NCBI GenBank assembly: GCA_910592345.1
Contig: CAJVPI010000115.1
Coordinates: forward strand, 1-52,479
Reading direction: 5' to 3'
DNA: 52,479 nt
Origin: Paraglomus brasilianum
Taxonomy: Eukaryota
In this document: positions 70 to 44,272 of the stretch, piece after piece
Layout of the letters: the number at the start of each line of letters is the position of its first letter
Numbering within the stretch: the stretch's first letter is position 1
Made by a program: the position numbers and the translations under genes
The notes under the pieces: model-generated
What the model saw: only the letters and a program-made list of their open reading frames with translations
What the model was told of the DNA's origin: nothing
Databases searched by the model: none

Positions 70-386
70 TGTAAAACAGTTCGAAAGATGATGAGCTGGG
101 CGCATGCTAGGTTTAAGAATCGATTGCTATCTAAAGCGGAAGAATTTGGTAAAATCGTAATAACATCTATATCTGAAGCATATACGAGTAAAACATGCAG
201 TCGTTGCGGATTTATTAGGAGGAATTTGGGTGGGAATAAAGTATTTGGGTGCGATGGGTGTGGACTTCAGATTAATAGAGAGCCCGGGGAGTTTTTCTCT
301 TGAAGTTTGCGTTCTTTTATTGTCTACACCTACGATTGAACGCTAAAGGTGTACCCCGGGCATTGCTTGATAGTTATGTAACATAA
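70..386 (+). pseudogene. Fanzor2/IS607-TnpB-like RNA-guided nuclease, disrupted C-terminal fragment
   Basis: KTVRKMMSWAHARF, RuvC-II SEAYTSKTC and zinc ribbon CSRC...CDGC are present. RuvC-III is broken after INR by a frameshifting deletion. ARGVFL and RALLDSYVT* continue in another frame, separated by a 57-bp insert (300-356). Confidence 0.85.
304..355 (-). mobile_element. Micro-insertion family copy 1 (longest, 52 bp), inserted in the Fanzor remnant
   Basis: agtttgcgttcttttattgt core plus a hairpin extension. Right flank ccgggcattgcttga (356-370); the left flank retains only cttga (299-303). Confidence 0.7.
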
Positions 387-572
387 TTATGCCAATTGAT
401 TGATGCACTTACGCAATGAATTTGATGAACACTTGCCGCAGTTGGTTTCACCAAGGTCCGACACAAAATTTCATGACGTTGTCAACATTCCGTAACCTTT
501 ACCTTCAAACACGCCACTGAAACTTTGACACTCATTTATCGCCGATTCTTCTATCTAACCATAAATCTTCTA

Positions 573-1605
573 ATGTCTTCGTATTTTGGTTTGTACTAAC
601 AAATTCAATCTTAATTTGTTTATCGTCGATAATTCTTATTTCATGTCAAATTTTTAAAAATATAAAGACGAAAAGGGCCTAGCTGACCCTGATCGTCAAG
701 AACGGAGAACGAGGCCTTCGGAGGATAATCCCGATGTATCTGTCTTCTTTGGATCTTCTCCGAGACAATCGCAGGCGGGGTCGTCGAGAGAACTTCCGGA
801 ATTGATTGATCAAATTTATGCTTTGGCTGGGTGAGATAATAAGGATGAAAAGTGGGTGGTGTAAAATGAGAGCGAGTGTGTATAATTGAACAAATTTACT
901 ATTGATGTAGATGCAATTTTAGCTGATTACGATGAATGATAATGTAGGCGATTTGGAATGCTCAGGGATCTCGTCACTGGAAGTGATAGTCAGCAGACAT
1001 TCTTGAACAACCTAATTACTCAACTATTGGAGGAAGCCGGTGACAGGTATGAGCGTATACGAAACAAAGGGAGTAAGCGAAATCATGCTATATCTGAATA
1101 AACGTTATTTTCGTTCCAGTTCAAAAGGTCCCCCGCCAGCAAGTAAAGCGTTCATAGAAAGTCTACCCGACGTTCCCAAAGCGCAAATTACGCCTGGTAA
1201 CGCCTGCAAAGCATGTTCTATAATTCATTGCAGCAATAATAATTAGCGTAACCTACTTCTTTGTTAGATGATTCCTGCATCGTCTGTGCTGAGAACTTTT
1301 CAGAGAGCAATAAAAGTGTGACTCGTCTTCCATGTGAGCATATGTTTGACAAAGAATGTATTATTCCTTGGCTTAAACTTGTAAGTTAACGTGTTTTCAC
1401 TATGCAACGGATGACCGTGGAGTGGCGTGATTAACATTGAGATTCACAGTAATCTAATTTACATCTTTAGCACAACACATGTCCCAGTTGCCGACATGAA
1501 GTCGATAGTGATGATCCTGCTTGGAAAAGAAGGAAGCAGCAAGAGGCAGAAGAAGAGCAAGAGGAAGAAGAAGAAGAAGAAGAATATGATTGGATGTATA
1601 TGTAG
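573..1605 (+). CDS. RING-finger E3 ubiquitin ligase, RNF181/YBR062C-like (spliced)
   Basis: MSSYF|D start, KGPPPASKAFIESLP, RING CIVC...LPCEHMFDKECIIPWLKL|HNTCPSCR, acidic tail ending YDWMYM*; GT-AG introns. Confidence 0.88.
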
Positions 1606-1755
1606 AAAACATAATGGATGAATAATAATTTTAAGGATGAAAGAGCATTTATAATGGTTCAATGAAGAAACAAGGAATGGATGACCAACTTATAAGATAT
1701 CTGACTAATGATATATTCATGAAATTGGATATTTAACTCGCCTACTGGACAAAAT

Positions 1756-4516
1756 CTATTTCAATGTCAAAGTTTTATTACTACCAAATCGTCGTAAAAT
1801 GTTTTCAAGTTTCAAAGTTAGCATCCAATCACCCGGGCTACGCCTTTTTTTACGCTTTACATGACAATCCTTCAGCTCATAAAACTTCTGCGCGCATGCC
1901 CTATCACTCCTCCCGGGAATAGTCTTAGCAATGGTTGCCCATTTTAACCCATGTTTTTCAATCCCCTCGAGCAACAGCTTCAACTCATCCATACCCCACG
2001 ACCCCTTCTTCAACCGAGGGTCAAGTGAAAACGACCATCGATGTCTACACTGGAACCTAGTCCTGCTGCCAATAGTATAAGCTATCTTTTGCCACATTCC
2101 AGGAGAACCCTTATATTTTTCGACGCCCTTTATCAACAACTCGTTCTCTTCTTGCGTCCAACGGCCAAGCGTCCTCTCCGAGAACGTCTCGTATGTCAGG
2201 CGATGCCATTTATCAAATAACTGCTTACGCCCTCGTGTAGGAAAATACCTCTGTACTATTAAAGACCAATTAATACCACCATTAGGACCACGTTCCGTGA
2301 CTTCAACAGCTTTTCGCAGAAGAGCAAGTTCGTATTGCGAGAATGGTTTACTTTTGCTGACAGGATTAAGCACTTCGTGCCAGCGATTTTTACATTGAAA
2401 TACAGTACGGCCTGGCAGACGTTGGGCAATAGTTGCCCAATCTATAGACGGATTACCGGAGAGTAAATTTTTCAGTATCTCGTCTTCAGCAACAGTCCAA
2501 GAAGACGGAGCGAAGCGGACACGATCCCATTGCGCGTGGCATTGAGATGGACTTCTTTCCTTGAAGGCAGCGGATATTTTTTCCCAATCTATGATTTTCC
2601 CCCTATACGTCTCTGCCATGGTACATAGCGTGTTTAGCTCTTCCTGTGACCAGTAAGACCGCTTGTTGTAGTACGTCTTTCCTCCCAAGTGGGAATTGTA
2701 TCCGATCACACGATCAGTCATCATAAACCTTCCTAACTCTCGTAAGTTGTTGGACATCGATTCGGAAGCATCAAGTCTCACCAACTTGGCATCACTCAAG
2801 CTTTTATAAAATCTCATACAATAGTTCTTGCAATCGTATGCCGATCTACGTGGCATTCCTTTTGTTACTTCATTCCAATCATCTCCATGATCGGCCACTC
2901 TTGTCCATAACACTTTTTGCTCCCTTGCGCTCCACTGAAGATCGTTCTTAGACGACGAATTATACGACAAGGTTAACCATCTAAAGAGACAGTCGATATC
3001 AGTTCTTCCAGTCAGTCCAGCAACAACAAGTTGCCAATTCATTCCGTATTTAGCAATTTGACGGAGCAGAATCTTATCTTCTTCTGATGTCCATTTGCGT
3101 CTTGCCGTATTGCGAGTGGAATTAGAAAAGTATCGATGTCTCACTTGGTATGTTTCAGCATTAGTTAGCTTGCTGGCAATAAGAGTCCATTTGTAACCGT
3201 GCAACATTACTTGCTCTCTTATGAAATCGTCTTCTTCTTTTGTCCATTGGCGAGGTTTGTGACGTGTCTTTTCATTCTTTCTACCACATATGCTTTTTAT
3301 TGCATCGAGTGGTACCGCAGGTACTTCTTTTGATATTTTCCCCAGATTATCGGCACCGTTTTGAATAATGCTGTTTATTACATCATTGAATTGTTCAAGT
3401 GAGAGGTCCTCGTTTATTAACAGAGGCTGAATGCGATTAAACCATCGAAAACGGACGGCCAAATGTGTTCTATGAGGGAAATACTCATCAGAAATCTCCC
3501 TCCACTTCCGACCGCGTTTTCGTATTACCTCAACTAAGATTTTGTCTTCCTCAATAGTCCAGCATCTGCTCTTAAATCTAGTCGCGTCTTTTCCAGCTTT
3601 AGAAGAAAACTTCTTGGTTTCTTCCTTATCACTTAGCATGACAGCATGTCTAGAACGCATGGATTTCCATTTCCGCAAGTACGCAGAGGTGGGGCTTTCT
3701 CGAGTCTTTCCTTGTTCAAGTGATAAATACTCATAGATCAACAGCGGTCGAATGCGATTAAACCATCGGTAACGAACAGCCACGTGCGTTCTACAGGGAA
3801 TATAGTCGTTTGAAATCTGCTTCCACTTCCTCCCATGCTTTTGCATTGCTTCTATTAATATTTTATCTTCCTCAGCAGTCCAATATCTACTTGATCTACT
3901 TATTCCTTGGGGAGTTTCGATCGGAAAGTTTATGAAGTCTGTTTCCGATCCTAACAAGTCCTTATCCTCAAATTGCAATGCTTTTAACTTTTCCAAATAC
4001 GGAGCAGGGCCATTTTCCCGAATATCATTCGCTATTTTATAGAATTGTTCGAGTGATACATTTTCTTTTATCAATTGGGGTTGAATATGATTAAACCATC
4101 GAAAGCGAATCCCCGAATATGTTCTATGAGGAATATGCTCCTCCGAAATTTGTTTCCACTCCCGACCTCGCATCCGTGCCGCTTCTATTAAAAGTTTATC
4201 TTCCTCGTCAGTCCAGTACTTATTTGTCAATCTAGCCAACTCTTTACTGTCTTTGGGAGGATAACCTTTAATCTCTAAAACGTTATCTTCAGGATGCAGA
4301 TATCTCCATCTCTGTAAACACATTCCAGAAGTACTTTCCGGAATACCTTCTGCTACTTTATCGAACGTTTTTGGTGATTTCCCATGAATTGCCACAAGTT
4401 GCTCCAGTATTGAGTCATTTTCTGGTTTCCATACAGTATCACATACACTTGATAAAAATCTCTTGCATCTTATTTGTCTCGGAAGCTGTAAGGCGCTTTT
4501 CAGCAAGCGATAACAT
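1756..4516 (-). CDS. Multi-repeat Myb/SANT protein (about 12 repeats), single long ORF; start uncertain
   Basis: 916-aa ORF with repeated WTxEED...W...RT...RW units. The ORF opens at TTG 4506; the nearest ATG (4516) is one base out of frame. Confidence 0.85.
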
Positions 4517-5594
4517 TTAGTACGATATTCGATAATAAAATAGTCACGCGTTAGTTTTCAATAACTCTACTATACCGCAAGTTATCATATAAAGGGAGCC
4601 GCATGAGGTTGGCGACTGTTAGTCCGACAAAATTTTTTGTAGAAGTTTAATTAGGCAAGTGTAACAGCCATAATGCGGAAAATACCCACAATAGCAATTA
4701 CCAACTTGGGAATCTTGTTTCCATGTTAGGGAAGAGAACTTCTTATTCTGGAAATGCGTTTAGAGACTTGCTAATTGTGACTTAAACAGGGTCGACCTAT
4801 GCAAATCGGCCTTGTTATTAATTGCTCGTGCGGGTTTTCCTGTAAACTCTAATGTAATAGTAATAGTAAAGTTTACCCCAACAGTTTGGTAGCAGGAGTG
4901 ATCATCATTTCACACTGATATGCTAACATGATTTCATTGTTCTCCCAGACTGCCAGAAGTTAAATAAAGTCCGCTCGTGATTTATTGGCGGGTGTTTAAT
5001 GATCATCTATTTATATTTACAGTCGATAGTACTAAGAAATACTTTAATTTGTTTTATCAATATCATAATCTTTTTCGAAGGATCGATAATTAATTCTATT
5101 TTTGTAATTACGCAAGTAAAACCCGCCTGGTGATTTCACCGGGTAGGGTATATGATAATTTATTTTTATTGAACAAATAACTATATATAGGATAAATAAT
5201 ATTATTACTACTAATACTACTACTATTTTCATCTTTAGAATTGTTACTATCAAGATCACTATCAATCTTTAAATCATCGTCTGAATCGAAATCAGCAGGA
5301 TTAGAATAAATTTTTAAATTTATGAGTAACGACACTCACTATTGAACTTGACCTAAAACGGAAGTAAAGTTGTTGGGCGTATAGGCTCATCGAGGTCTTT
5401 GTTACGCTTCAGTCCCAGAACAAGCGTTAAATGACAGAAGACTTTTAAGCCACTACGTGGTTGGCATACAAGCAGTGTGCACTATATGGAAATAAGGCTA
5501 GCCAATAGGACGAGAGGGTCAAAATCAATATGATTGGTTGGTTAAATTAGGTATAAAACTGAAATATTTAACGTTAAAGCACTTGGTTTATGTC

Positions 5595-6028
5595 TTGACA
5601 AGGAGAAAAAACGAATGGCGAACTTGCGTCGAAGTACGGAATCAAGGAAAAAACCGACCCTGCAGTCTTAATGAAGTTTTGCGTTCTTTATTTGTTCCTG
5701 CAGTCTTAATGGCAACGAATTCTAATGAATATACTGCTCAGTTGAAGCGTAATCGCCCTCTCAAAATACAAGATGTTGAACGTGCCTTGTGGAGTTGGGT
5801 CAAAGGTGCGTTATCCTCCAGTCTTGATATATGCTGACGACATTTATTGCAAGTCATTAGTGAACTTATAGCATAATTGTATAAAATAAATTTCGTGCTA
5901 TAATGGAATTGCACGTGCAATCATTAAGAAGTCCATTATAAGAAACCATACACGTTATTATGGACTCGTGTTATAATGGTGCTCATGGGCTATGCCCAAC
6001 TTTCTATTATAACGAGCTTTGACTGTTA
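5595..6028 (+). mobile_element. Decayed pogo/Tc5 transposon (CENP-B-type HTH remnant plus right terminal repeat)
   Basis: QLKRNRPLKIQDVERALWSWVKGALSSSLDI resembles the Tc5 DNA-binding domain. Repeated (g)ttataa(c/t)g subterminal motifs precede the end acgagctttgactgtta. Confidence 0.65.
5659..5711 (-). mobile_element. Micro-insertion family copy 2 with 15-bp TSD
   Basis: cctgcagtcttaatg (5659-5673) + aagttttgcgttctttatttgtt (5674-5696) + cctgcagtcttaatg (5697-5711). Confidence 0.9.
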
Positions 6029-6769
6029 TTGCTCTTTTCAGAATGAATCACCATCAAGAAAACACTGTCAACCAATAGAATTAGCTAACGGTGTGATACG
6101 TGTTACAATTGAGAATGGATACGTCTTATAGTCTTAGCATTGTTATATGTGTAAGGTTTGTCTCTCTTGTGGTATTGATAATTCTTCGTTTACATGTCAT
6201 TGTCCAAAAACGCAAAAACCAACAAAAAAGACTACGAGGGTCTTTTATAGTCGTATAGTATCCGCCAACACTCGACCTTCACAATTAGACCTTCTAGCAG
6301 GTGTCACAGTCTGTATCAAAGGCGTGCAAAACGAGAACAGCAAGTTTCTGTACAAAAACCGACAGCTCTCACAGATAATACTTCTCGCTGAAAGATGCCT
6401 CTACTTAATGATATGTTTTTACCATCTGATCCTATTACGCAAATCAATGCCTTGTTAGTGGTGGTGAACCCTTTTAACCACATGAATTTCCTGCTAGACA
6501 AAAAAGAAAGTGAAGTTGAAAGAGCATGAGTTTTTTGTCCTTACGATCGAATCATTCAACGCGACCTTGCTCATACCTTTTCAAATTCAGAAAAGGTGGT
6601 GGTGATTGGAAAGTGTTAAAAAAATAGAGAATAAATTATTGAAGCTTAGGTCAGAAATTACGGAAAAAGAACAAGAACGAGAAAAAACGCTATGCCCTTG
6701 TTACATACGCTCGATAAACCTACACACAAAACACAGATTAGTTACTTAAAAAGACAAAGACAATAATAC

Positions 6770-7152
6770 ATGGCGCGCTGTGGAGATAATCTTCCCAGTA
6801 AGTCTTCTCATCTCAGAAACCAACTCGTCTAAATACCAGTCCGCCTTCTGTTCGACTAAATACTTGAGAACCTTTAATATTAAGGAAAAATCATTATATA
6901 TATAATTATGTTCGATCGGTTGGCAACAAAGCCAATGTTATATACTTCCATGTCATTTGCATCAAACAATTTTCTTCTTCCTTTAGGGCCCACAAAGGAT
7001 TGTAGACACCCCCCTATACTAATACATTCTCAGGACCCTTCCGACAGTAGACCGAGAAACATGTAAGAGACTTCTTATCTTCTTGTTTGAATACTCGTCA
7101 TGATGCAGGTATACTATTCTCCAACGTAGGTCTTCGCTGATACTTTTGGCAT
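6770..7152 (-). pseudogene. Tc1/IS630-like transposase N-terminal HTH remnant with an intron
   Basis: Frameshifted translation ISEDLRWRIVYLHHDEYSNKKIRSLLHVSRSTVGRVLRMY...KGRRKLFDANDME|intron|VLKYLVEQKADWYLDELVSEMRRLTGK; no DDE domain follows. Confidence 0.7.
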
Positions 7153-8008
7153 TTTTCTATCAACAATAATAAATAATATCAAAAGAGAATTGTAAGTATT
7201 GCATACCCATTTCATACTAAGTGTGAACTCGAAACCTCATTTAATACTAAGTTACAATTGTTTCATAACCAGTTGTAATCTCATAATCGTCTTGTAATCG
7301 GTTGTAATTGCTGGTTTAACCACTCAACAAACTTTCTTTTCTTGCCTTGCGCTAAGTAAAGAGATAAAGTTGTATCAAGTAGGCTTGATAATCGCGGGCG
7401 CGTCCACGTATAAGCGCAAAAAAACGTAAACAGCCATAATAATAATAACGTTTAATTTTCCAAATATTTGTAAGTGTAAAATATAATGCAATTGTTTAAG
7501 TGGCTGGTGCTAAAAGCCTTTTTTTTCAAATTAAAGAAAAAATCAATTGTTATCAGATAGACACCACAAAGTCAATCCAATAACTATAATTCAATCGGAA
7601 AATAATACGCCACTTTTATCTACGTTTTTCAGTAATGTTGAAATAATTATTACTATACACATATTTCAAATAATAATTTGTGAAATTTACTTTTCGCGGA
7701 TAATCGCAGGCTCCCTTCATTGGACACTCAAATGGCTTCTCCCCATAAATAGAAATATTATGGACTGTACGACGTGTCGGTTTGTGCGACCTGGCAGGTA
7801 AATTCCTGATAATTTTGCGGGGACTATATAAAGTGACACTAACGGGTTTGCGGTTCAAAATTCTCCCATTGTTGAAATATGGTACTTGACTATTAAGGAA
7901 TGATGCATACAGACATTTAAATTTGTGTAAGCGCATGTCAATATATCATAAATAAAAAAAATAAAATTTCCAATTCCAAGAGTCATTTTAATTTGTTTTT
8001 CTTAAAAA

Positions 8009-10004
8009 ATGTTCGACAATCCAGATAATGTAGAAGAGAGGCTCCATGTAGAAGAAGAGGCGAAGGTACATAAATCGCATATGTTTAAGACTTGACGATA
8101 ATATGATAGGATATTTCAAACAATGTTACGTATTTTTTAAACGTATTAGCATTTTCGCAAAGTTCTCCAAACGTTTTCGCTCTACAAAACATCGGCTCTG
8201 ATGGCCAACAATCGTAGACGAAAGGACTATCATGCGCTTACAGAGAGACATAAGAATCTGATTCCTAATTATCTTAATCATTTGAATACAATCGACCGTG
8301 CCATAGGAAAAAACTATGCAGTAGTCAAGCAGATTATGACTAATGGACAGATGTTTTCGGATGGAAAAGTATGCCGTTTGAGATCTGGCTGATTCTTCTC
8401 CCCATACAAAGATTGACTAATATCCGTTTGCTAGGATAGCTCCCTTTTGCACACGCATACTAGCGAGCAGGATGAAAACACACAAGATGAAATAACCGAA
8501 TATGACTTCGACAAACTGCGTAGTACGATCAAGCAGTTTGTAAGAGACTGGTCTATTGAGGTATGGCGTGGTATGTTGAAATAAATATTGGCTGCTTTAT
8601 CGCTGTCTCTCAATCCAATTTTTGTATGTCAATTACTTGTGTACTTGATAGGGAAAACCCGAACGGGACGTAACTTATCAACCTGTATTACAAGAATTAC
8701 TTGAATACTACAAAGAGGTACCTTTATCAGAGAGGTAACGTTCTTATCACTATACAATATTTATATTACAAAGAGGTACCTTTATCAGAGAGGTAACGTT
8801 CTTATCACTATACAATATTTGTATTACTGTATAACACTAACTCTAAATTGTATTCCACTAGGGCTAAGATAAATGTATTGACACCGGGAGCTGGCTTGGG
8901 TAGATTAGCCTTTGACATTGCCAAGTCAGGTTGGTAATAGTAGTTCTTTGTTTACATATATCGATGAATAACAATTCCCACATTTTCTTTTGCTATGTAT
9001 AGGATTTAGCTGTCAAGGTAAATTAAACTTGCTATTACACAGGAAAGCAGACAGATGTGTTCTAATCAATATCTAATTTTAGGAAATGAATTTTCATTCT
9101 ACATGGTAATTTTTGATGACAATTCTTATAAATGAACGTCTGACTACCGTTATGACTGATGATATGATGGTTTTAGCTCTTGGCTTCTCATTTTATATTG
9201 AACAGGTAAAGGAGGGACTTGATTGATAAGCAGTGTAAATCGTATTGCTCACATGATGTTTTACAGGATCGAACGCATCCATCAGTATGAAATCTACCCG
9301 TTCATTCATTCTTTCTCAAATATTCCTTCTTTTGAGGAACAACTGAAGCCAATAAGTATACCCGATGTTTTGCCGAGTGAAATACCACAAGGAATAGACT
9401 TTTCAATGGTAGCTGGTGATTTTGTGGAAATATATGGAGACGACAGCCATAAGGGTAATATCAGTATCACACTACTAATTGTTATTATATAGAGCTAAAG
9501 ATTTTTCTTTTTTTTTTTTTGCAGGGACATGGAACTGTGTCATTACATGTTTCTTTATCGACACTGCAAAGAATATTATGGAGTATATTGAGATAATTTA
9601 TAACATTTTGAAGCCAGGCGGATTGTGGATAAACATTGGTAAGCGAGATACATATGCATCTGTTAAGTACAATAATGTTGGGGTTATATCCAATTGCTCG
9701 TCATTTGCAGGTCCATTACTGTATCACTATGAAAATATGCCTGGAGAAATGTCTATTGAATTGAGCTTAGAAGAAGTCAAAAACCTTGTCAGGAAGATTG
9801 GTTTTGTCATTAAGGTGATTAATCTTAACGGTTCATTCATGATATCAGTTTATTCATTATTTAGTAAGGTCGTGACTCCAGGTCGGTAATTCTCCTGTCT
9901 TCTATACACAGAAAGAGAAAACGATTCAGACTACGTATACAGCCAACCCAAATGGAATGCTGAAATATGTGTATGATTGTGCATTCTGGACATGCGTGAA
10001 GTAA
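8009..10004 (+). CDS. CARNMT1: Carnosine N-methyltransferase (N2227-like), many introns
   Basis: [71 protein letters not shown]; ends FWTCVK*. Confidence 0.93.
8709..8824 (+). repeat. 58-bp tandem duplication spanning an exon end and 5' splice site
   Basis: tacaaagaggtacctttatcagagaggtaacgttcttatcactatacaatatttrtat occurs twice (8709-8766, 8767-8824) with one mismatch. Confidence 0.95.
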
Positions 10005-10039
10005 ATGTCTTAATGCAGAGGCAAATATAATCCATAAAT

Positions 10040-12289
10040 TCAAGTAGCCATGTCAGGAGAACTTTTCGCGTTCTTACGCACAATCGCATCATTACAACCT
10101 AATTGTTTTAATTCTTCATCTGTATACCCTAATAAGTATAAGACATATTTCAGACTATGCTGATTTATGCGTGCTCTCGCCTACAAAAAAAATTGATCGT
10201 GACACATAAATAAGTGCTATTACAAAATTGTTGATTATCGCATTGCGTAGACTAAGTCTAACCTGTTCCTGAACTCTTGGTTTTGCATTAAATGCTATTC
10301 CAAGTCCTGCTCTTGCCAGCATCCAAAGATCGTTCGCTCCATCGCCAACAGCGATCACCTGATCAAGCGATACATTTTCCGCTTGGGAAATGACTTCAAG
10401 TAACTCGGCTTTGCGCTCACCGTCAACAATCGGTCCAAAGGTCTCGCCCGTAAGTGTTAGACCATCTTGGGATACCTTCAACTGTAGAGCGTATGAGCAT
10501 GACTTTTCCACCACTTGCAGGAGAGAGATATCAAGAATTTATAAATATTTTGAATCTGACCTGATTTGCAAATGCATAGTCTAAACCTAATTCTTGTTTA
10601 ACGTACTGGGCGAGCGGCATGAATCCACCTAATTTAGTGAAAAGATTATTAAAGCTACCCTTCGTTTCGATACATGAACCACATCTTGCAAGCCAAATGG
10701 TTACTAGCTTACCAGAGATCACCGCAAGTTTAAACCCAATCTTCTTTAATGCTTTGCATAAAGCATGGGCGCCCTTGGTAAATTGTAAGCCATCTCTGAC
10801 AGTGTCCAACACTCCTACTGGTGTTCCCTTTAAAAGAGCTACGCGACGTCGCAACGATTCTTTAAAGTCAATCTCTCCATTCATTGCACTATGAGTAATG
10901 CTCTGTGAAAAAATATATAATGTTAACAAACTTGATACTAATAATAGCAATATCCTATTCTTCAAATACACATGGAGCACATACAGCGACTTTATCTACC
11001 ACACCGGCAATTCTTGCAATTTCATCGATTACTTCCTGGCGAATGAGTGTCGAATCCATGTCAAAAACCACCAATCTCTTGTGTTTTCTGAACACGTCGT
11101 GTGGTTGCAGAGCAACATCCGTTCCATGACTAATGCTCAACTGAAACAAATCCTGTCTTAGGTTATCAATGTCGACCCCTATAGGCACAGATAATTCATA
11201 GTCTGCGCACGAAACTTTGCCTTCATTCAACCTCTTTAATTTTTCAACAGATATATTTTCCCTAAGTAGTAACTTAGTCCACTCATTAAGGAACTGGGCA
11301 GTCAGACCATTCCCATTCAACACTGTTGCAGTATACTTCATACGATTATCATATGGGGCATCCTCTATAGAATTTGGCAGCGTTTGTTCTTTGTCATGAA
11401 TGTCAAACGCAAGTATACCATCCCACTTCTGAGCAGATTTAGCAAGATCACGAAACAATTCGACACTATTCGAACGAAGAACAATCAAGACGCCAAACGT
11501 AACATTGTGGTATAATCGGGACAACATGAAATCTTCGATTTCGACACCGAATTTTGCCATGCTTTCCAATACGCACCCGATAACATCTGTCCCATGCGAT
11601 CCAGTCAATGATACAATAACCTTATGGTGAGGAAGAAGTGCAACTGACGGGAAGAGACTGTGATCTTTCGATGGCGCATACTTTCGCTTGGATAGGTTCG
11701 GGACTGTATTGTTGGATGTTACAGCAGATCCAGAAAATTTATCCATTAAGGTTTTTTTTAAAGTAGATAAATCCCCCATCTTTACAAACGGTAAGGAGGC
11801 AGTCCTATACAGGTATGCTTCACTTATATTCAATCCGGAATGTCGGTCGTGCTTCTTTAATATCTTCACGACACCCGTATAATTCAACAATGCGAAATTC
11901 TCCAACTGAACGATACCCTCCAGTGATTCATCAGCATCTTTCTGATTTAGGCCTTCTGGTTTTCCAACTGCTGCATCATACATTCGGAACAATTGTGAGC
12001 TCTGTTCCTCAAAAAAATCGGATACCTTTTGTACTTCAGCATCAAGAAATTCAAGGAATTTAGTAGTATTCACTTGTAATAAACCGAGACGTTCTGATAC
12101 TTTGTTAGCGAATGATGGTTGATTGGGTGGATTTGGTTTCCAGGTAAGTTGGGTCAGATCAAATGAGAGAGTGTTGGGGGTAACATTGGATTTTAGAAAC
12201 TTTTTGATTTGCTTATAATTGATGAATTGATCAGTCCACGCTTTGGGCAAGCGCGCTTTATTTTCTTGAAGAAATTTACCGAATTTCAT
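10040..12289 (-). CDS. SPX domain + ACT-like domains + HAD phosphoserine phosphatase (SerB-type) fusion
   Basis: MKFGK...INYKQIKK and LNYTGVVKILKKHDR (SPX); FDMDSTLIRQEVIDE, ISGGF and GDGANDLWML (PSP motifs). SPX and the catalytic motif I lie in the same exon. Confidence 0.93.
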
Positions 12290-12526
12290 TCTATAGAAAG
12301 GTGTTATAAAGTGTAGAATCCAGATGCAAATGAAGATACAAATAATAGTAAAATCCTTGTAACACTTGATGAGAATGCCTCTTTTTAACATTGCTTACTA
12401 AGGCGGAGTATTTTGGTCCTTTGTGTATCAAACATAGAGAAACAGCCGAAATGACAGACATTGTTTATACAAAATTAGTAGTAGTAATTACATAAAATCA
12501 ACCATAAACGATAAGATAGCCTGTAT

Positions 12527-12532
12527 CACGTG
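12527..12532. promoter_or_regulatory. CACGTG E-box (possible Pho4-type site) upstream of the SPX-PSP gene
   Basis: Exact CACGTG about 240 bp upstream of ATG 12289. The hexamer also occurs elsewhere in the window. Confidence 0.35.
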
Positions 12533-12967
12533 CGTATGAGTTAGGTATTCTCTATAAGAGCAAAATGGACTTGGCAAATTCACCGTTTTCACAATCAATT
12601 GAAGCGGGCTCATTCGATAAAAAGAAATTCATTAGACGATGCGTCGAATAATTGCCTTTTCTTAATAAATATATTTCGACTAGGAATTATTGTAATTCTA
12701 TTCTTATGTGTCGCAAGTGTGGCGGACACGGAAAAATAGCTCGATAAACATCAAACTTTATATTTGTAAATAGTTCCTTAATTGACGCGGGCATGTAAGC
12801 AAAACCGCGTTATAGTTGCATTAAAAATGTAATGATATCATAAACAAGAGTTCTTTCTATGTTCCTCCACATGATGTCTGGCTGTCTTTATTGTTTCTTT
12901 TGTAGGCCTGTTTGCAAACCGGGAGATGTAATACTGAGCCTAATGCCTGTTTAGATCGAGCGGCTAT

Positions 12968-13038
12968 TACAGTCAAACCTCATACCGAAATGTCGGGGGA
13001 GGTACGAGATACCTCTGTATAACTTACTTAGACTGTCA
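12968..13038. mobile_element. Short pogo-like MITE remnant
   Basis: tacagtcaaacctc...ttagactgtca imperfect terminal inverted repeats. Confidence 0.35.
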
Positions 13039-18720: not shown

Positions 18721-18768
18721 TGTTCACATAACTGGAGTTTTGCGTTCCTTTATTGTTCACATATCTGG
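18721..18768 (-). mobile_element. Micro-insertion family copy 3 with 15-bp TSD
   Basis: tgttcacataactgg (18721-18735) + agttttgcgttcctttat (18736-18753) + tgttcacatatctgg (18754-18768; one mismatch). Confidence 0.88.
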
Positions 18769-18802
18769 CCTTGCTGCAAACATAATTAGTTAATTGTCTA
18801 CT

Positions 18803-33756: not shown

Positions 33757-34023
33757 ATACCTGCACTCATTACTATTATTGCATATCTATCACTTCCATA
33801 ATATTAACACAATCCTCCTGTCTTATTATAATCAATGTAATCCTTAAATTATAACCCCTTTTCCAATGTTGCTATTGTGATCATAATATTGATAATTCGT
33901 TACAAATCGTGCCTCGATCGAATCGGTTTATGCACTATACTTTGCTATCAAACCCTGATTCAAAGGATATATAAATCACTTTTTTCGCCTCGTCCATTGC
34001 ACCATACAATTTTATCTGACATA

Positions 34024-35019: not shown

Positions 35020-35312
35020 TTAGCAATGAAGAAAATGGTTTTTGTTTTTGGAAGGGCAGATTTGTGAAAATATATACACATGACATTGTATGACACGCAA
35101 ACGTCAATCAAATAAATGAGTGAAAATTTGAATGTAAATTACGATGATTTTATTAAATTGAATTTTTGACATTTTTGGGCGTTTGCTATAACTTACTTTT
35201 GATGATCAAACTATATAATCCAAACTACTACTAAAATAAATAATAGATGCCAAATAAAATTGCACACATGAATATACAAAATAGTGATCTCTTTCGATGT
35301 TTTAGTTGCTCA

Positions 35313-38300
35313 TCACCAATCTAACTTACTATCTCCACATCCACCACATGCAACTTCCTGACCAACTCTTTCAATAATGTTGATATTTTTCTCCTTCCTA
35401 ACATGATGCTTTTTAACCATCCACTTACTTGTACCAAGTAAGCCGTCCAACTCTTCCGTCGACGGAAGCAATAACCAAACGTGCTCACCCTCGATCTTTA
35501 TATCGAAAGTCATCAATTTCAAGTCTGGACCATCAGTCAGACAATCTCCAGTCTCGAGAGCATAGTTCTTCTTATGCATGGGACAACTCACTTTCAAAAC
35601 TCCATTCTCGTCATCCCCAACAATCCCCTGTGACAAGACAAATGCTCGCTTGTGTGGGCACATGTTTTGAGTTGCATACCACTTTGTCCTATTATGACTA
35701 TTAAAGATGGCTATTTGCACGTCTCCGTATTTAACAACATCTCCGGCATCTTCGGGGAACGAGTTAACGTGAGCAATCTTTATCCATGCCTTTCCTCCGT
35801 CAGGTGCACTTTCTGCGGCTATCCGTTCGGATTCTTCTGTTTTAGGGAATTCCTTGGGCCAATCAGCAGGACGGTTTTGACCGCGCTCGTCGACAAATTC
35901 AATAAGAGACTGGTTTTCGTCTGTATTGGTAAACTGTCGAAACTCGGCTCGTCGTTTAGGATCATGAACTACCGTCGCCCATTCACATTGGTATGTGTTG
36001 ATAAGACGCGCCATGTCCTCTTCTAGTTCTGCACAGATGCCCAGGTAATCATCTATTACGACTCTTCTTAAATACTAAATTTATGTAATGTGATTTCCGA
36101 ATGTTATTAGCAAATGTTGTTAGCAATACAAACGATTACAGCTTATCACGCATTATTTTTACAACATACATCAATCCCGCCTTCCATTTTCTCTAGCCAT
36201 CGTGCGGTACGCGTGAGTCGATCGGCCGTGTGTATGTAGTACATCAAAAATCTGTCCAAATACTTTATACACAATTCTTCTGAAATGTCTCTAGCCAAAA
36301 GTACGGCATGTTTAGGCTTTGCTCCACCATTTCCACAAACGTAGAGATTAAATCCCTTGTCTGTTGCAATCATGCCAAAGTCTTTCCCCTGTGCCTCGGC
36401 ACATTCTCGAATGCACCCAGAAACACCTCCTTTAAGTTTATGCGGTGACCTTATTCCCTTGTACCTGTTTTCGACCTTAATGGCAAACCCGACCGAATCC
36501 CCGATTCCATATCGGCACCAAGTCGATCCGACACACGATTTAACTGTTCGTAATGCCTTGCCATAAGCGTGACCAGATTCGAATCCAGAGTCAACCAGTT
36601 GTTCCCAGATATCCGGCAGGTCTTGTTTAGCAGCCCCGAAGAGGTCGACACGTTGTCCGCCAGTAATTTTGGTGTACAGATTGTATTTCTTGGCCACTTC
36701 TCCGAGAACAATGAGTTTCTCTGGTGTAATCTCTCCACCCGGCACGCGTGGTATTACCGAATAACTTCCTCCACGTTGAATATTAGCCAGGAATCGATCG
36801 TTCGTATCTTGTAAATTGGCATGATCGAGTATATGATCGTTCCATAAACTAGCCAATATGGATGCGATGGCTGGTTTGCATACTTCGCATCCATACGAGC
36901 CCTTTTTCCCAGCGGTATCAATAATCTCCCTAAAGGTTTTCAATTGCTTAATCTTGATAATCTGGAACAGTTCGACGCGCGTATAATTAAAGTGTGGACA
37001 GAGATTTTGGGTAACTTTGTGGCCGCATGCTTTCATTTCTGCCGCAAAAATTTCTTGGACATCTGGGAGACATCCGCCACAGCCGGTACCTGCTTTTGTG
37101 CACGATTTGACTTCACCTATGGAGCGGCAGCTGCCTGTTCGAACCGCTTCACGTATTTCGCCTTTTGAGATGTTGTTGCACGAACTTTAGTGAGTAATGC
37201 AATTTGGGAAGGAAGACTTCAGTTAGTCACGTGATTGATATTAAATCATCTTCCGCAAGTCAACAAACATATGGATCAGCCATCATCATACTTACCAAAC
37301 CTGAGCCTCATCTGGCAACTCGTCTGCCCCAGGTGCCTGCCCCGACTTGACTCCCAATATTAACTCTCCAGGAAGCATTGTCAATGGTTTCTTACTCTTC
37401 CACATAGCATGCAATTTGGCGTAATCGTCTGTATCTCCAACCATAATACCGCCCAACAGATGCTTTCCATCCTTACTAAACAAGTAGTTTTTATACACTG
37501 CACCAAATGGATCTTTATAAGTCAACGGCATAGCCACGTCCTCTTTCGCGAAATAATCACCAAAACTAGCAACATGCACACCCAAGAGTTTCAACTTGGA
37601 TGACAAGTCACCACCCTTGAACTTTCTATCTCTTGCCTGAGATGTCAAGTTAGCCGCTACGACATCCGCCATGTCATAACCAGGTGCTACCAATCCATAC
37701 ACGACTCCACGGTGTAAAGCGACTTCGCCTATAGCATAGACATGGGGATCGTTTGTCTGCAGCCGATCGTCAACTTGAATACCGCCACGTGGATGAGTAT
37801 CGATATTAGAAACTCGCGCGATATTGTCACGTGGTCGTATGCCAGCAGCAATGACAATGACTTGGAATTCATCAAAGTGATCGTTCTCGTATGTTATGCC
37901 AGTAACCTTGCCAGTTTCGTCGATTTCGATTTTTCGTGGGCTATTCTGGAGGACCTTTTTGATACCTATTTTCTCGATTTCGCGTTCGAGCATTAGACCA
38001 CCCTCATGATCTATTTGCCGCGATAACAAGTGAGGATTTCGTTCTATGATTGTTACTTCTAACCCCAGATCCATCAATGCTTTGGCGGCTTCAAGTCCCA
38101 GTAACCCTCCTCCGATGACTGCACCCTTTTTAGCATTTTTACACCAGCTAATAATATTGTCTAGATCATCAATGGTTCTGTAAACGAAACAACCTTTGGC
38201 TTCTTTGTTTGGAATGGGCGGGACAAATGGATCGGAGCCTGTGGCTATGATACACTTGTCATACTGGATCTCTCTACCGGATGATGAGATGACTGTTTTC

Positions 38301-38810
38301 GTAGACGTGGAGATGGAAGATGCCAGTTCTGATGTGTAGAGCGTGATTGAGTTGTTGGAATACCATTCGGGAGGCTGGAGAAGGAGACGAGTGGAAGAGC
38401 GGTGAGAGAAGTATTGGGTCAGCCCTACCCTGTTGTATGCGACTTTGTGGCAAAGGAAGGGGGTGGTTGATTATTAATCACATTTTATGAATCGTGCATA
38501 AAACCGCGTTCTTTTTTAAATATTGCTCGTTTCAATGTTAGTAATTACCTAAACTTTCTTCGCAGAAACTCACAACTTTGTATCTCTTTTTCGTATCATA
38601 CTTTAACAGCTTCTCAATAAACGACAGTCCCACCATTCCCAATCCAATCACGACAACTGTCTCTTTGTTCGTTAGTCCATTCGTAACTCCGTTTGTTAGT
38701 CCATTCGTAACTCCGTTTGTTAGTCCATCCGTAACTCCGTTTGTTAGTCCATTCGTAACTCCATTCGTAACTCCATTTGTTAGTCCATTCGTCAATCCAT
38801 TCGTTTCCAT
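35313..38810 (-). CDS. niiA: Assimilatory NAD(P)H nitrite reductase (NirB-like + C-terminal Rieske NirD-like), 3 introns
   Basis: GLGMVG FAD motif, GGGLLGLEAA, AGTGCGGC, KSCVGSTWCRYG, GVSGCIRECAEA, Rieske CPHK...CPMH. Confidence 0.97.
38667..38804 (-). repeat. 12-bp coding minisatellite encoding (TNG[L/V])x11
   Basis: METNGLTNGLTNGVTNGV... at the nitrite reductase N-terminus. Confidence 0.95.
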
Positions 38811-39850
38811 GTTGTCTGAGAGGTCGAATGCAATAATTCCGTTATATGAATGCTAGCACTAACAAACTGATTAGGATTGTGTATGATGCGATTGATTATA
38901 TGAGAGAATGATGAGTGGTGATGGATATGTGATAAATTATATCAATCACCACACAGCATATTACGTGCTGAAAGGGGGGGGGTACCTTTCAATACATACA
39001 GTATATACAATGTATTTAGTACCAGTGTAATGGTCATTGTTTACTTACTTACTTACACATGCCCATAACATGTGGCGCTCGTAAGCGCTTTGTTTACCAA
39101 ACAGCTATCTTTCAAACTAAGGTCTCACAACACTTAATTTTTAAGTATACTGATAAGCTTGTCCAATGTAGAAAAACTGCAATGTACACGCTTTATTTGT
39201 TACACAGTAACATTGATAACCATAACTTTGTTACACGGTATCATTAGTAACGATTAATTTGTTATCGGAACAAGTGATCTGCATGAGACAGCTGCATGAC
39301 AAGGGTAGAACAGGAAGAGGTTGCAGCATCCTCTACATTCTTGTCTTGTGATACTGACGGGTAGATTCTACGCTGAGGGCGTAAGTTCTTTGGAAGAGTC
39401 ACACAATAAAGATATACATCCGATAGGTTGATAGGTTGACCAAATACCCTAAAACGCAATGATAGTCTCTAAGCAATTTATTTCTCGTCTTCTTGTATTA
39501 TTGGTTTTATTGGTTCCAACCAACCCTTGGCGTATCTCATTCAAAGTGCAGATCATTGCCAAGTCTTATATCGTTATCGGATATTAATTATTCCAAGCAC
39601 TATGAAAAATTTGCTTGTAGTAAGTGATTAGAGCACATGTCAAAAGACTATGATTTGTTAGCATAATAAGAACGACCACGCTGATCCGTTGTGTTTTGAA
39701 TGTTCTTCATTTTATAATGGAAGCAATTGCAACGAATCAAGCCTTCAAACCATATATAGTTACACTAACGATTATATTAATATGCCCCTGTGCGACTGTT
39801 GTACAAATTGTTCTTTTTTGTTTCAAACTAAAACTATAATAAATGGTTCT

Positions 39851-39953
39851 CTTATCTGAAGATAAGAACACCCCAATTAGAAAAACTTGTTAGCGGAGGA
39901 TCTTCAACTTATCTATATCTGCAGATAGGATCGATATTAGCTTATCTATGATA
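39851..39953. promoter_or_regulatory. Cluster of GATA sites (AreA/Nit2-type) upstream of nitrite reductase
   Basis: Inverted pair cttatc-tgaa-gataag plus six more GATA/TATC cores in about 100 bp. Confidence 0.5.
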
Positions 39954-41505
39954 ATCGCAAGCGGGTTTTGGCGATCAATTTAGAAACATCCTTATTTATC
40001 GAAAATAAGTCGGGACAGAAAAAAAATTAAAGTTTGGTAACAAGCATTAAATTACCCTTAATATTTTCCGGAATAAATCGGCGATTCATGTATCCAAACG
40101 GGACGTTACGGAACGATAATGCACTATTTGCAACTTCATACGAACTAAGCAAAAAGATCTTAGGTAGAATATTGATCAAGTAAATTATAAGGGCAAATTC
40201 GCTCGGCGTTTTGACAATTTATTCGGTTGTAAAATTAGCATTAGTGATCTAGGGTACCAGAACCTTAATTAAAAAATAAAATAAAATATTTTCTCACAAT
40301 GCTCCGTTTCTGACGTACAATACAAAGTTTATGTTTAATTTGGTTCCGTCTGAGCTTCATAAATAACTCTGTTCGTATACCAGGACTTCTGTGAGTAAGG
40401 TCGTGTTACATCATAATTTTAATCGGGGCTGCAGTTCTCTGCCCGTACGACTTTGGGTAGCAATTTTCAGACCCAATGGACTCGTTGGGACGTACTGCGT
40501 GCGACTAGTAAAGGACAATGAATATCTTAACAAATTTACTGACTATTGTAATTTGTCAACTATTGGCCATACATTTTTAATTCCTATCGTTTATCAGTGT
40601 GTGTTACTTTCATGAGCACGATAAGGAAATGTCAAAGATATGTGTGGCTGCATATGCCTGTTTGTGGCTGTCAATACACGCTCGTATATCCAGAGTCTGT
40701 CTCCGATTTGTTCAATTTTTTGGTCTCTCCCAAAACGGAAATTCACGTACCGATATGTCAAGCAGTAACATGTGTTGTGTCGTCACATTTCGTAGTAGCA
40801 CAACTTTGGTGTTTCTCAACAATAATGCAATTTCGTTAGACCAAAATCTTAATCTGTTAATCGCCTTGACTCTTTAAGCATTTGTTTGCACAAAATAACA
40901 TATATATCCAAGTTTATTTAGCAGTGATAGAAACCGGGAACGCTTCCCTATCTCGAAGAGGCTTGCGACAATACATTGGCCCTTGAAAATTTTAATTAAT
41001 TTAGCTATCAGCTTTCCAATTCCGCCCCTCTCAGGTCTGTAAATTTGTGTCCATAACAGATAAATGCACTTCATCGTCAACCTATGTCCCTTCCCCATTT
41101 TCCCTTATCTCCCTCCAATGACATTAAGTCTACTCGATGATCGATTGCGTGCAGATCCTAATTGCCTAATAAATTCTCTGAATTGCAGATCTTCTTCTTA
41201 CGTACCGATAAAAGCGATAAATAACTTTAATTAGAATTAATTTAGTAACTAGAAACTTAATGAAACTCAATATGGTAATATTAACCCATTCATTTTTGAG
41301 CATGTGTTTATTTATATTGTGTATATTAATACTTAGTATAAAATTTTTTTACACTTTTACAATCGATTGATTAGACTAAACTAGAAGCAATCGCTGTATT
41401 TTCGAATAGTCATAATCCAATGCAATGATCCACAGAAATTACACCTTTCAATGACAGTATATACGATCTAGTTAGATATTATATGAATACAAGAAGACAG
41501 ATCGT

Positions 41506-43052
41506 CTATGACTTTCTAAATGAAGCCAATCTCATTCCATCAACTTTCAATGTGAAGGCGGTAAATGCAACCGTCATAACAACACATCCAATAACCATAA
41601 ATGCAGTTGGGGTATCTTCCGAGTATTTCTTAAAGATTATAGTAAATATTAAACCACCAATGTTGCCACCCGCTCCAACTAGACCAGAGATAGCACCAGA
41701 AACTGCTGGATTGACGAAGGGAACTATACCAAATGATGAACCACAGCCAGCCTATTGATATTAAGATAATGTTTGTAAGAAATCGATTGTATTGTAGCAA
41801 GAAAAGCAAAGAGTCTATACATCATATCAATGCAAAGCAATCGCTTCTTACTCACCTGAACAAAGTAGCTGAAAATAACCAACACGATAATAGCTCCAGT
41901 CAAGGTAGTAACAGCAAATTTAAAGAGAAACAGGAATAATCCTCCAAAGAACATAATCAAAAGCTGCACCAATAATCTTCCACGTATTCCCAGACGAGAA
42001 CTTGCAAAGTCAGATAGGAATCCCCCTGTAGCACGTGAGAAGAGATTCATCAATCCAAATAGAGATCCGATCAAACCCGCGGTCTTTTGGGTCAAGTGGA
42101 AGTGGTTGAAAAGAAAATCTGCAAGAACGTTGTCCACCGCTAGTTCTACGCCGAATGTGCAGGAATACATGACCATTAAAACCCACACATTGGGATTAGA
42201 TAGTGCAATGTAGAAAGCCCTAAGTTTAGAAGTAGGTGGGGCAGTGGCGGTACTTTGTTTGTTTGCCGGTTCAATCGTAGTTGCCTTCTTTTCCTTATCA
42301 ACATCTCCAGCATCGTGTACTTCAACTATTTTCTCTTCTTCTACGAGTTTTCCCCTGTTCTTCCATTTTCCTTCTGGACAATCATCCGTAAACAACAGAC
42401 AAGCTATACCAACGACAATCAAGAGACAGGCTGGTACAACTAGCGTCAGTCTCCAAGCGTCATGGGTGGACCTTCCTCCATCAACAAACCATTGCATGAT
42501 TACTGGCATGAGAAGGTACGTAATACCAGCTCCCATGTTACCCCATCCTCCAGCAATTGCGTTAGCACTGCCGACAACATTAGAGTCGAACATCTGCATT
42601 GTCCAGAATTGGCATGGAACAAATGTCGCTCCAAGAATACCGACGAAAAACCTTGCAATCATCAATCCCTCACGATCGTTTGCCAACCCGGTTAATCCGA
42701 CCGGAATAGAACCCACCAGAAGTAACGTTGCCATAACCTTTCTTGGACCGATAGCGTCACATAATGGACCAACAAGTATACGGAACGCAATGGTAGAGGA
42801 GACGGAAATAATGTTTGAATCATTGAATTGGAAAGGGTTTAACTTCAGGTCCTTTTTAATTGTTGGAGCTAAAGGAGCGACAGCAAACCACCCAGTGAAC
42901 GCGGTAAGAAATCCAAGCCATGCAAAGTGAAATGATCGCATGTGAGGGCGAGAGAATTTGATCAAATTGAGACGCTCCGCCTTTTGCGTGGCTGGGTTGG
43001 TCGGAAGTGGGTTTCTTGGGTTCCCAAACAGTTTTCCAAGTGCCTTTGACAT
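41506..43052 (-). CDS. nrtA: High-affinity nitrate transporter NRT2 (NNP family, MFS), 1 intron
   Basis: RPHMRSFHFAW, nitrate signature AGGWGNMG, FSRATGG, second signature SGLVGAGGNIGG; stop at 41506. Confidence 0.96.
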
Positions 43053-44219
43053 TTTTTCTTATTTTGTTGGTCCAGAAAAAGGAAAGGGTAGAGATGATTG
43101 GGGAAGAGAAGTAAAAAAAGAAAAGGTAATGATGAAGAACTTAAAAAGAAGTAATGATGTTTCGTATATTTTTATTCATAAATTCAATCGATTATTACAA
43201 GATTTTTTTTTATTGGATAAATCTTATAATATTCTCATGCGGTTTCTTATCGAACTATTGAAGCGTCAAAGAGCAGATGGAGTTCGAAAGCCGGCGGCTA
43301 ACGGGAGGAAATGGGTTGGACGCGACTTTAAAAAGAATTTACTTCTTGTGTGTAAGTATTCGGTTATACAACGGATTTACAGTATTAAATCAAGTGACTA
43401 TGTATTATCCTTATTATTATTTGTTTTGATGATATTTCTTGTTCTACACCGGATACTGACAGGACAATTGCCTATCAACATTTCACAGCAGCTGCAGTGC
43501 AATGTCATATCCATCATATGAGTGTTATTGGTTCTGTTTCATATGCTTGTCACACCGACGCCTATCAGACGAAGATCACTCAACTTCGTTTTCGTCAATT
43601 ATTACCATAAAAATTCTTATTGATATTAAACTAGTCGAAACACCGTTAAACTTATCAAATCATCGTGAATACGACTTTCTTATGGTACGTTATAATTTAT
43701 TACGACACGCGGATGTACGCCCAACAGTGTTACAATTCAGTTCTGCACTACACCCCCTCTTATCTCTCACGAGGTCTTTTTAATGCACCTGCATTCTTTA
43801 TTAAGTTGCAAAAAAAAAAAGAGAGAGAAGAAATCCATTCTGCAGGCAGTTTCCTTATTCGTTTTGTTTATGTTGTAATGCATTCAATCAAATTGGACCG
43901 TGTAATACATATAAAGATCACCCGCGTATATATTATGAATTCTAAAATCCACAATCACTCATTACGTGATGCACCGTTCATTCTGTCACAAAACGCCAAG
44001 ATAAACCGATTGGGGTGGTTTCCTAAATGAACAGAATAAATGAGATAAGCTAAATCCAGAATGGTGCATGATAGAACAGCTATCAAAGACTAATCAATGT
44101 CGATTTGGGAACTTTCAATCTGAAAGAACAATGTTCTATTAAATCCGCGTACCCGCTTATCAATCGCCAATCAACTTACTGAGTGTATTACAATCCAGTT
44201 TGCTAATTGTTGACCCTTG

Positions 44220-44272
44220 CCTTGTACTCTCCATAACTAATAAAGGAACGCAAAACTCCTTGTACTCTCCAT
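44220..44272 (+). mobile_element. Micro-insertion family copy 4 with perfect 15-bp TSD
   Basis: ccttgtactctccat (44220-44234) + aactaataaaggaacgcaaaact (44235-44257) + ccttgtactctccat (44258-44272). Confidence 0.92.

Follow-up and report, generated by a model that had tools for sequence, protein, structure and literature searches.

The question raised by this contig of Paraglomus brasilianum is how several very short, related inserts came to lie between direct repeats within a single stretch of 52,479 nucleotides (the whole of which we call the window). The first-pass annotation had placed four copies of one core there, and all four are present: allowing up to 3 mismatches, we found 4 core matches against 0.18 ± 0.44 expected (100 shuffles, none of which reached 4), with core ends at 304, 5675, and 18736 on the minus strand and at 44257 on the plus strand. 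A covariance model run without filters, whose training rows included copy 1, recovered the same four copies (all E ≤ 0.003) and gave no other window match below E 0.38. The copies, their flanking duplications, and the parts of copy 1 are as follows.

52..404, plus strand: host of copy 1, the decayed 3' end of a TnpB/Fanzor-like gene that occurs in many copies
299..303, no strand: 5-nt remnant arm of the copy 1 target-site duplication, probable, as read by eye
304..355, minus strand: copy 1, a whole unit of the 52-nt class, subfamily A, matching the L013 and L044 copies over 49 to 50 nt
309..343, minus strand: pseudoknot stem S2 of 6 bp, pairing 338-343 with 309-314, a prediction only
325..353, minus strand: stem S1 of 7 bp in the predicted fold of copy 1, pairing 347-353 with 325-331
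356..370, no strand: intact 15-bp arm of the copy 1 duplication, supported by loose ends of host-repeat paralogs
5659..5673, no strand: first arm of the copy 2 duplication, exact over 15 bp
5674..5696, minus strand: copy 2, a 3' stub of 22 nt with one further base at the junction, spanned gaplessly by an independent soil contig
5697..5711, no strand: second arm of the copy 2 duplication, exact
18721..18735, no strand: first arm of the copy 3 duplication, 1 mismatch in 15
18736..18753, minus strand: copy 3, an 18-nt 3' stub, with 3 further bases common to the duplication
18754..18768, no strand: second arm of the copy 3 duplication
44220..44234, no strand: first arm of the copy 4 duplication, exact over 15 bp
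44235..44257, plus strand: copy 4, a 23-nt 3' stub, subfamily B
44258..44272, no strand: second arm of the copy 4 duplication, exact

The inserts measure 51 (+1), 22 (+1), 18, and 23 nt in copies 1 to 4; copy 1 consists of 304-354 with an additional 5' G at 355 and is one A short in its 3' A-run. As had been proposed, three copies lie between 15-bp direct repeats (two exact, one with a single mismatch) and that of copy 1 is partial, the intact arm at 356-370 facing the 5-nt remnant at 299-303; most likely 10 internal bases of this duplication were deleted later, the host gene being in decay. The junctions adjoining the duplications read TCA, TCA, CCA, and CCT, in agreement with the earlier reading, and no 3'-truncated copy was found in the window.

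Copy 1 interrupts the last codons of its TnpB/Fanzor-like host, and here an empty site with one target 15-mer could be recovered, for this copy only, from paralogs and protein relatives. In a read comparison covering window positions 100-6400, host-repeat paralogs in soil reads skip the insertion (X5 joint 281 to 371, at a depth of 48, which we do not equate with copy number), and two intact relatives of the host gene (P0123 and P0124, 80 to 87% identity) read in frame through the single 15-mer. Copy 2 is not an assembly artefact, since an independent soil contig (X7 record 31) reads across it without gaps, which disposes of the adapter or assembly error that had been named as a possible refutation; a separate joint in X7, from 5673 to 5773, has unknown letters between and does not establish an empty site for this copy. 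By eye, the frame around copy 2 resembles a pogo-type helix-turn-helix gene interrupted by 38 bp, and Pfam returned no match for either piece. Two of the window copies sit within transposon remnants, and copy 4 separates two divergently arranged genes, one for a nitrate transporter and one for nitrate reductase.

To the four copies in the window, a scan of metagenomes added 18 further loci, bearing out the claim of repeated insertion. The search pattern comprised 19 bases anchored on the 3' end, a design to which shorter or diverged copies are invisible and by which 3'-truncated copies are under-sampled; 28 of the 46 metagenome matches, together with 3 viral matches, had neither a further match nor a duplication and were discarded as chance; all but L014, which lay at an edge, were then used as a set of 30 controls. 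This yielded 25 independent copies, 24 of them scorable for duplication. A clear target-site duplication (at least 11 of 14 bases) flanks 17 of the 24, but 0 of the 30 chance motif matches, the highest of which reached 10 of 14; among 4000 random positions in the window the rate was 1.3%. Duplication length varies, mostly between 11 and 17 bp, and in these 17 copies mostly between 13 and 17. The family was found in three separately assembled metagenomes and in three soil runs; viral contigs contained only the 3 chance matches to the 3' motif and none to an internal motif, and 185,579 prokaryote genomes held no exact 19- or 21-base match. Density in the window is 76 copies per Mb (95% range, 21 to 195), a figure biased upward by the choice of this window for the family. 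At 3 of the 18 loci, copies stand head to tail with one duplication between them, and in two such arrays (L010 and L036) the neighboring copies are of different type.

The junction supports the bias of 2 to 3 nt noted at the outset: 15 of 25 copies read CCA there (background, 1.3%), and 20 of the 25 read CC (background, 3.6%). The CCA begins a pre-existing duplication arm at 10 of 16 sites, C is the first duplication base at 14 of 16, G occupies position +5 in 12 of 25 copies, and loose ends from the three soil runs show the identical junction. T occurs at 3 to 7 of 16 sites per position from -9 to -13, with no excess near -10. As a sign of junction bases templated by the RNA, mismatches between duplication arms were judged by eye: the right arm carried the consensus base in about 5 copies and the left arm in 2, a sample too small to settle the point. 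None of the 25 copies carries a poly(A) tail, consistent with the proposal of a non-polyadenylated RNA end. Linked internal changes divide the family into two subfamilies, A and B, with three mixed copies; two subfamilies had indeed been suspected from the window, but their supposed tie to TCA versus CC junctions is not supported, since junction type does not track subfamily.

The 25 copies fall into three classes, of 18 to 33 nt (11 copies), about 52 nt (10 copies, nine of 51 to 55 nt and one decayed), and about 68 nt (3 copies), with one more cut by a contig edge; none has 34 to 47 aligned bases. The 3' end is fixed and truncation is confined to the 5' side, as described earlier, but raggedness at the 5' end is limited: the 13 copies of at least 48 nt begin at two points only, the 68-nt start lies 16 nt beyond the 52-nt start and agrees within 1 nt among the three long copies (all damaged), and 0 of the 24 measurable copies pass it. 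The insert first reported as the one 52-bp copy has the size given, yet is a recurrent unit rather than an exception, and the reading of these inserts as merely variably truncated ends of something long finds no support, given that the 52- and 68-nt starts are fixed and nothing longer was found. In 26.9 kb of sequence upstream of 26 copies, the unit itself is the only shared element. Low-depth metagenome assembly disfavors long repeats, and long copies are perhaps undercounted.

The 52-nt unit can, in a model fold, form an H-type pseudoknot, and the interleaving of both stems was permitted in 0 of 3000 shuffles. Within S1, one pair differs on both sides between the subfamilies (G-C in 6 rows, A-U in 5), a single event that 47 to 53 of 500 shuffles equaled or beat; S2 shows no covariation, and the folding of two long copies, both with indels, is no better than that of shuffles (z of -1.0 and +0.4). 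The unit further carries an A-box-like motif at +9 and a B-box-like core downstream, a combination matched by 13 of 100,000 shuffles in a post hoc test; the final base of the B-box-like motif does not fit. The two boxes start 21 nt apart (measured in the unit without the internal duplication of L032), below the 31 to 93 nt given for box spacing in yeast tRNA genes, where box A begins at +8 of the mature tRNA (PMC4937561). A run of five T spans +5 to +9; five is the minimum reported there for a yeast polymerase III terminator, with stronger runs required in vivo (PMC4937561). The A-box-like stretch may be a structural by-product, because it is complementary to the 3' part of the unit (duplex of about -12 kcal/mol in L032). 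ARAGORN found no tRNA in 5 loci, Rfam returned no tRNA match at E ≤ 10, and nothing reached an Rfam gathering score in the window or among family copies. On anatomical grounds, three further candidates were set aside: a tRNA 3' half (its T-loop-like motif is too distant from the CCA), an HDV-like ribozyme (the inter-stem sequence is too short), and a Helitron end (duplications are present).

The duplications, the fixed 3' end, the 5'-side truncation, and the empty site of copy 1 together make it very likely that target-primed reverse transcription produced these insertions, as the first-pass annotation had supposed. The template was most likely a discrete, putative RNA of about 68 nt, a mini-SINE. 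The family itself is established, as are its duplications, one empty site, three length classes, the target beginning with CCA, and two subfamilies; with about even confidence we hold the full reading, in which the endonuclease and reverse transcriptase of a LINE-type element worked in trans on a discrete and putatively structured RNA of that size. The RNA would be transcribed from few master copies, perhaps through an A-box/B-box-like internal promoter; the enzyme would nick the target beside CCA(N)G, exposing a DNA end that would prime by pairing with a CCA located at the 3' terminus of the RNA or close to it. Copying may often stall at predicted stem S1, 22 nt in, leaving stubs of 18 to 33 nt; otherwise it would continue to the true start at 68 nt or, on an RNA that had been processed or trimmed, to a 52-nt end lying at the 5' base of S1. 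A second-strand cut about 15 bp away would create the duplication, and the finished insertion could restore a better priming site, so that new copies enter at the old junction and build arrays. Across the 18 loci and the non-genic parts of the window, 126 frames gave no Pfam match to a reverse transcriptase or endonuclease; LINE clades are reported in Rhizophagus irregularis (PMC11075540). A bolder version, which we consider unlikely, treats the family as a retroposon of 68 nt, complete in itself, with an RNA that is cut back to 52 nt and, as a pseudoknot, mimics a tRNA; a genuine 3' CCA would both recruit the reverse transcriptase and choose the target, each insertion becoming the preferred next site. 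Few retroposons described so far would be as small, and nature would thereby have supplied a minimal template for inserting genes by homology guidance and without a tail.

The main rival to a discrete RNA is that the inserts are 3'-tail stubs of an autonomous LINE lying outside the sampled sequence, which we regard as a serious but doubtful possibility. Reverse transcription, or 5'-to-3' decay of the bound mRNA, would on that account halt at stem bases and give the stereotyped 20, 52, and 68 nt with no separate promoter. All three 5' ends do coincide with stem bases, and AATAAA stands 13 nt before the fixed end, as though a polymerase II 3' end had been primed ahead of its poly(A) site. Stereotyped LINE stubs of 17 to 18 bases have reportedly been seen twice before, in protists, and L017 starts within the unit, like a contig broken by a repeat. 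The tails of "stringent" LINEs, moreover, often contain stem-loops (PMC3747384). What this account must accommodate is that longer copies stop at two points only, that no measurable copy extends beyond the 68-nt start, that the 46 metagenome matches include no contig of at least 1 kb with long common upstream sequence, and that loose ends at the 5' end of the unit, among the matches listed (24 of 177), agree at 54 to 64%, as unrelated flanks do.

Rather improbable, in our view, is that an undescribed host non-coding RNA, which may extend further, was copied by internal priming at CCA into tailless retropseudogenes. Mammals offer a precedent, as presented in PMC5322556, in tailless copies that are complete at the 5' end, carry duplications, and were primed internally; the junction bias extending to +5 could be RNA sequence past the apparent end, and the compensatory change in S1 suggests structure under selection. 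No Rfam family was matched at its gathering score, Paraglomus RNAs being uncatalogued there; four copies in 52 kb from one RNA, a sole priming site, and two subfamilies with mixed copies resemble a propagating element. A DNA-level process (a miniature DNA transposon, repair insertion, or slippage) or an amplification or assembly artefact, suggested by the tiny size of the element and the transposon remnants around two copies, is very improbable and already largely refuted, as terminal inverted repeats are absent, the ends are not complementary, duplications vary from 11 to 17 bp, truncation is one-sided, and the family recurs in three separate assemblies and three soil runs, with copy 2 crossed without a gap in one of the runs. 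Descent from a bacterial glutamine (glnA) riboswitch, the top Rfam match in three of the E-value scans (18 to 21 bits; E 0.007 to 1.1 by stretch), is barely credible: the score is well under the gathering value of 35, alignment is confined to the first helix and its flanks and omits both inner arms, no such match came from an intact subfamily A copy, and the 185,579 prokaryote genomes hold no exact 19- or 21-base match.

Paraglomus is described in PMC9453076 and PMC11952901 as repeat-poor with little recent transposition, yet this family is abundant in the window, at a size that repeat finders likely skip. So small a natural template makes the RNA structure needed by a non-LTR enzyme directly testable, and the family lets both the shortening of copies at fixed places and the choice between RNA-target pairing and nuclease preference be tested; those copies whose duplications are exact could help to tell strains apart in a fungus that grows only together with a plant. 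No such element was described in the literature searched by title or abstract start. Like 5'-truncated copies of L1-type LINEs, the family has a fixed 3' end, a variable 5' end, and duplications below 20 bp, but it lacks the poly(A) and TT|AAAA target of L1, using CCA instead, and its lengths cluster at three values, never above about 70 nt. RTE-clade LINEs and RTE-related SINEs, as characterized in PMC6007223, likewise link the first duplication base to the element 3' end and have a hairpin near it, whereas RTE duplications start with T and have a T-stretch near -10; ours start with C and show no T excess (16 sites), and our family has no microsatellite tail. Therian tailless retropseudogenes (as presented in PMC5322556) share the missing tail, the duplications, the proposed priming by RNA-target complementarity, and very short length; our family differs in having a single fixed 3' end, proposed priming at C-rich instead of A-rich sequence, its own subfamilies, and no known source RNA. 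The fungal SINEs listed in PMC5063351 span 140 to 900 bp, in contrast to a unit of 52 to 68 nt. Some fungal SINEs are paired with stringent LINEs through a shared structured 3' tail, Mg-SINE with MgL and SINE2-1_BG with Tad1 among those treated in PMC3747384. Unlike stringent-LINE SINEs, the family has boxes too close together, no terminal repeat or poly(A), and no partner LINE identified; like them, it is non-coding and flanked by duplications, with a fixed 3' end of predicted structure and, possibly, a tRNA-type head.

All four cores described in the first-pass annotation were recovered where it had placed them, compared with 0.18 expected in a search of the window allowing up to 3 mismatches, and the 15-bp direct repeats it reported are exact at copies 2 and 4 and carry one mismatch at copy 3. 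The insertions, and the host sequence of copy 1, are as follows.

52-404, + strand: host of copy 1, the degraded 3' terminus of a TnpB/Fanzor-like element present in very many copies
304-355, - strand: copy 1
5674-5696, - strand: copy 2
18736-18753, - strand: copy 3
44235-44257, + strand: copy 4

With a covariance model, these four remained the only clear copies in the window; its next match, at 43770-43838 (+ strand, E 0.38), is weak, has a T-run upstream, and could reflect either chance or an ancient copy that has decayed. A scan of the metagenome collection returned 46 loci matching an exact 19-base pattern, with genuine copies at 18: all 16 from one assembly, plus L015 (counted as real from its long match) and L026 (from 4 extra matching bases and a partial duplication) from two others. 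At the remaining 28 loci and in three viral hits, only the search pattern matches. This brings the total to 27 copies, window included, or 25 with the three-unit array at locus L044 counted once. The metagenome copies are of Paraglomus origin, because a protein encoded at locus L017 has as its best match, at 93% identity, the representative of a Paraglomus occultum cluster (the next best reaches 68%) and because soil run X5, which has a near-exact match to single-copy DNA of the window, contains a junction also present in L010.

At least 11 of 14 bases are duplicated without gaps in 17 of 24 scorable copies, versus none of the 30 control hits and 1.3% of positions drawn at random; in several of the other 7 the duplication is gapped or decayed, and none was seen at the first copy of L010. 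Immediately past the fixed end, 15 of 25 copies read CCA and 20 of 25 read CC (window background, 1.3% and 3.6%). The opposite arm, representing the preinsertion target, begins with CCA in 10 of 16, and G is enriched at position +5 (12/25; p ~0.001). The same junction occurs in the loose ends of 6 to 9 contigs per soil run in three soil runs, and 0 copies carry a poly(A) tail or terminal microsatellite.

The empty site foreseen for such insertions exists for copy 1, where host-repeat paralogs in X5 skip the insertion (joint from 281 to 371, depth 48). This host is a high-copy repeat that at 100-404 codes for the terminal part of a protein resembling TnpB/Fanzor (Pfam PF07282; E 2e-14), and loose ends at 404 suggest that the element's right end lies there; relatives occur in chytrids and other Glomeromycotina, the closest 80 to 90% identical. 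By eye, relatives at 80 to 87% identity stay in frame where the window frame breaks, and one relative, P0123, ends in RALLDGALVM, the coding expected from a single target 15-mer. On this evidence, the partial duplication of copy 1 is best explained by a later loss of 10 bases. An independent soil run supplied a 186-base contig that runs through copy 2 with no gap, and copy 2 is therefore no product of genome amplification or assembly. This copy splits a putative pogo-type transposase remnant (5602-5834 and 5797-6026) that has no Pfam match and adjoins another multicopy repeat. A transposon was also the target at L013, where the end of a frame for a Tc1-type transposase (PF01498) carries a full 52-nt copy (762-813).

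The freely ragged 5' end first proposed did not survive measurement, as the 52-nt class begins within ~2 bases of one point. Inserts fall at 18 to 33 nt (n = 11), 51 to 55 nt (n = 9, plus one decayed), and ~68 nt (n = 3: L015, L032, and the second of the L036 copies, all three bearing an internal indel), with one cut by a contig edge. Nine of 12 long copies fall in a 4-base window (p ~5e-7 under uniform truncation, a post hoc value for nonindependent copies of one master). The common start of the three longest lies 16 nt beyond the 52-nt start, and 26 copies compared over their upstream flanks have no other sequence in common there. Eight of the 11 stubs stop at 18 to 24 nt, the foot of a predicted stem; stubs shorter than the search pattern are invisible in the metagenome set, and the window holds no copies of 12 to 17 nt.

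Polar truncation, variable duplications, and the empty site make target-primed reverse transcription very probable across the three retroposition readings taken jointly. A search of 126 frames gave 0 hits to a responsible enzyme; Rhizophagus irregularis is reported to carry LINE clades (PMC11075540). We favor, at roughly an even chance, a discrete RNA of ~68 nt mobilized in trans, because both long forms occur in both subfamilies and nothing longer exists among 24 measurable copies. The latter also weighs against stubs of a LINE tail, a possible but distinctly less likely source, although long repeats drop out of short-read metagenome assemblies and stem bases coincide with all three 5' ends. 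Copying of a host RNA after internal priming is improbable.

Re-insertion at an old junction explains the arrays at L044 (three units, the same 16-mer between each) and at L010 and L036 (two units each, of unlike types, with one duplication-length spacer between), whereas slippage or unequal exchange could account for L044 only. The array rate of 3 in 18 is overstated, as two-copy loci are easier to find.

The 52-nt unit is predicted to form a 7-bp stem; four intact copies gave fold z values between -1.4 and -2.7. The two subfamilies differ at linked positions, and one stem pair is A-U in 5 rows and G-C in 6, a covariation that is a single event and fails to beat a shuffle control. Six loop bases can pair with the tail in a predicted H-type pseudoknot; none of 3,000 shuffles yielded the two stems together, and the second stem lacks covariation. 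In a predicted alternative, the 16-nt extension pairs with the 3' part of the unit as a long hairpin. The extension also carries a motif resembling an A box at +9, followed 21 nt later by a B-box-like core, both labeled by the consensus patterns of these boxes. The two may form an internal promoter; in yeast, box A has a similar place, +8 of the mature tRNA, but the boxes are spaced 31 to 93 nt and a run of five or six T can act as a terminator (PMC4937561). ARAGORN found no tRNA, and the sole Rfam match, a glutamine riboswitch, was rejected as subthreshold and confined to one helix. In the long form at L032 (1062-1090), a U-run, a 6- to 7-nt spacer, and the pseudoknot come in the order that ribosomal frameshift and read-through signals have; the likeness is probably coincidence.

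Copy 4 sits in the divergent promoter region of a nitrate assimilation cluster (35300-47250; nitrite reductase, transporter, and nitrate reductase), whose nitrite reductase frame starts with a 12-bp tandem repeat coding for (TNGL/V)n (38630-38809). A nitrate transporter of the window matches a protein of Paraglomus brasilianum, an arbuscular mycorrhizal fungus, at 100% identity. Elsewhere, the window holds a 933-aa open frame with ~11 Myb repeats and an internal ~320-bp block triplicated (1756-4557, - strand), a near-exact 58-bp tandem duplication (8705-8820), and a frame (10955-12394, - strand) joining SPX, ACT, and, by eye, phosphoserine-phosphatase-like parts, a putative phosphate-sensing fusion.

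A literature search, with Dfam, Repbase, and a curated arbuscular mycorrhizal fungal library outside the comparison, gave no published account of this element among the entries listed, nor is it mentioned in the available portions of PMC9453076 or PMC11952901. The RTE signature, as described in PMC6007223, is absent from its insertions. The fungal SINEs that PMC5063351 lists span 140 to 900 bp, and the element departs from SINE2 in size, box spacing, and tRNA homology; in its workings, it resembles a stringent SINE or a tailless retrocopy.
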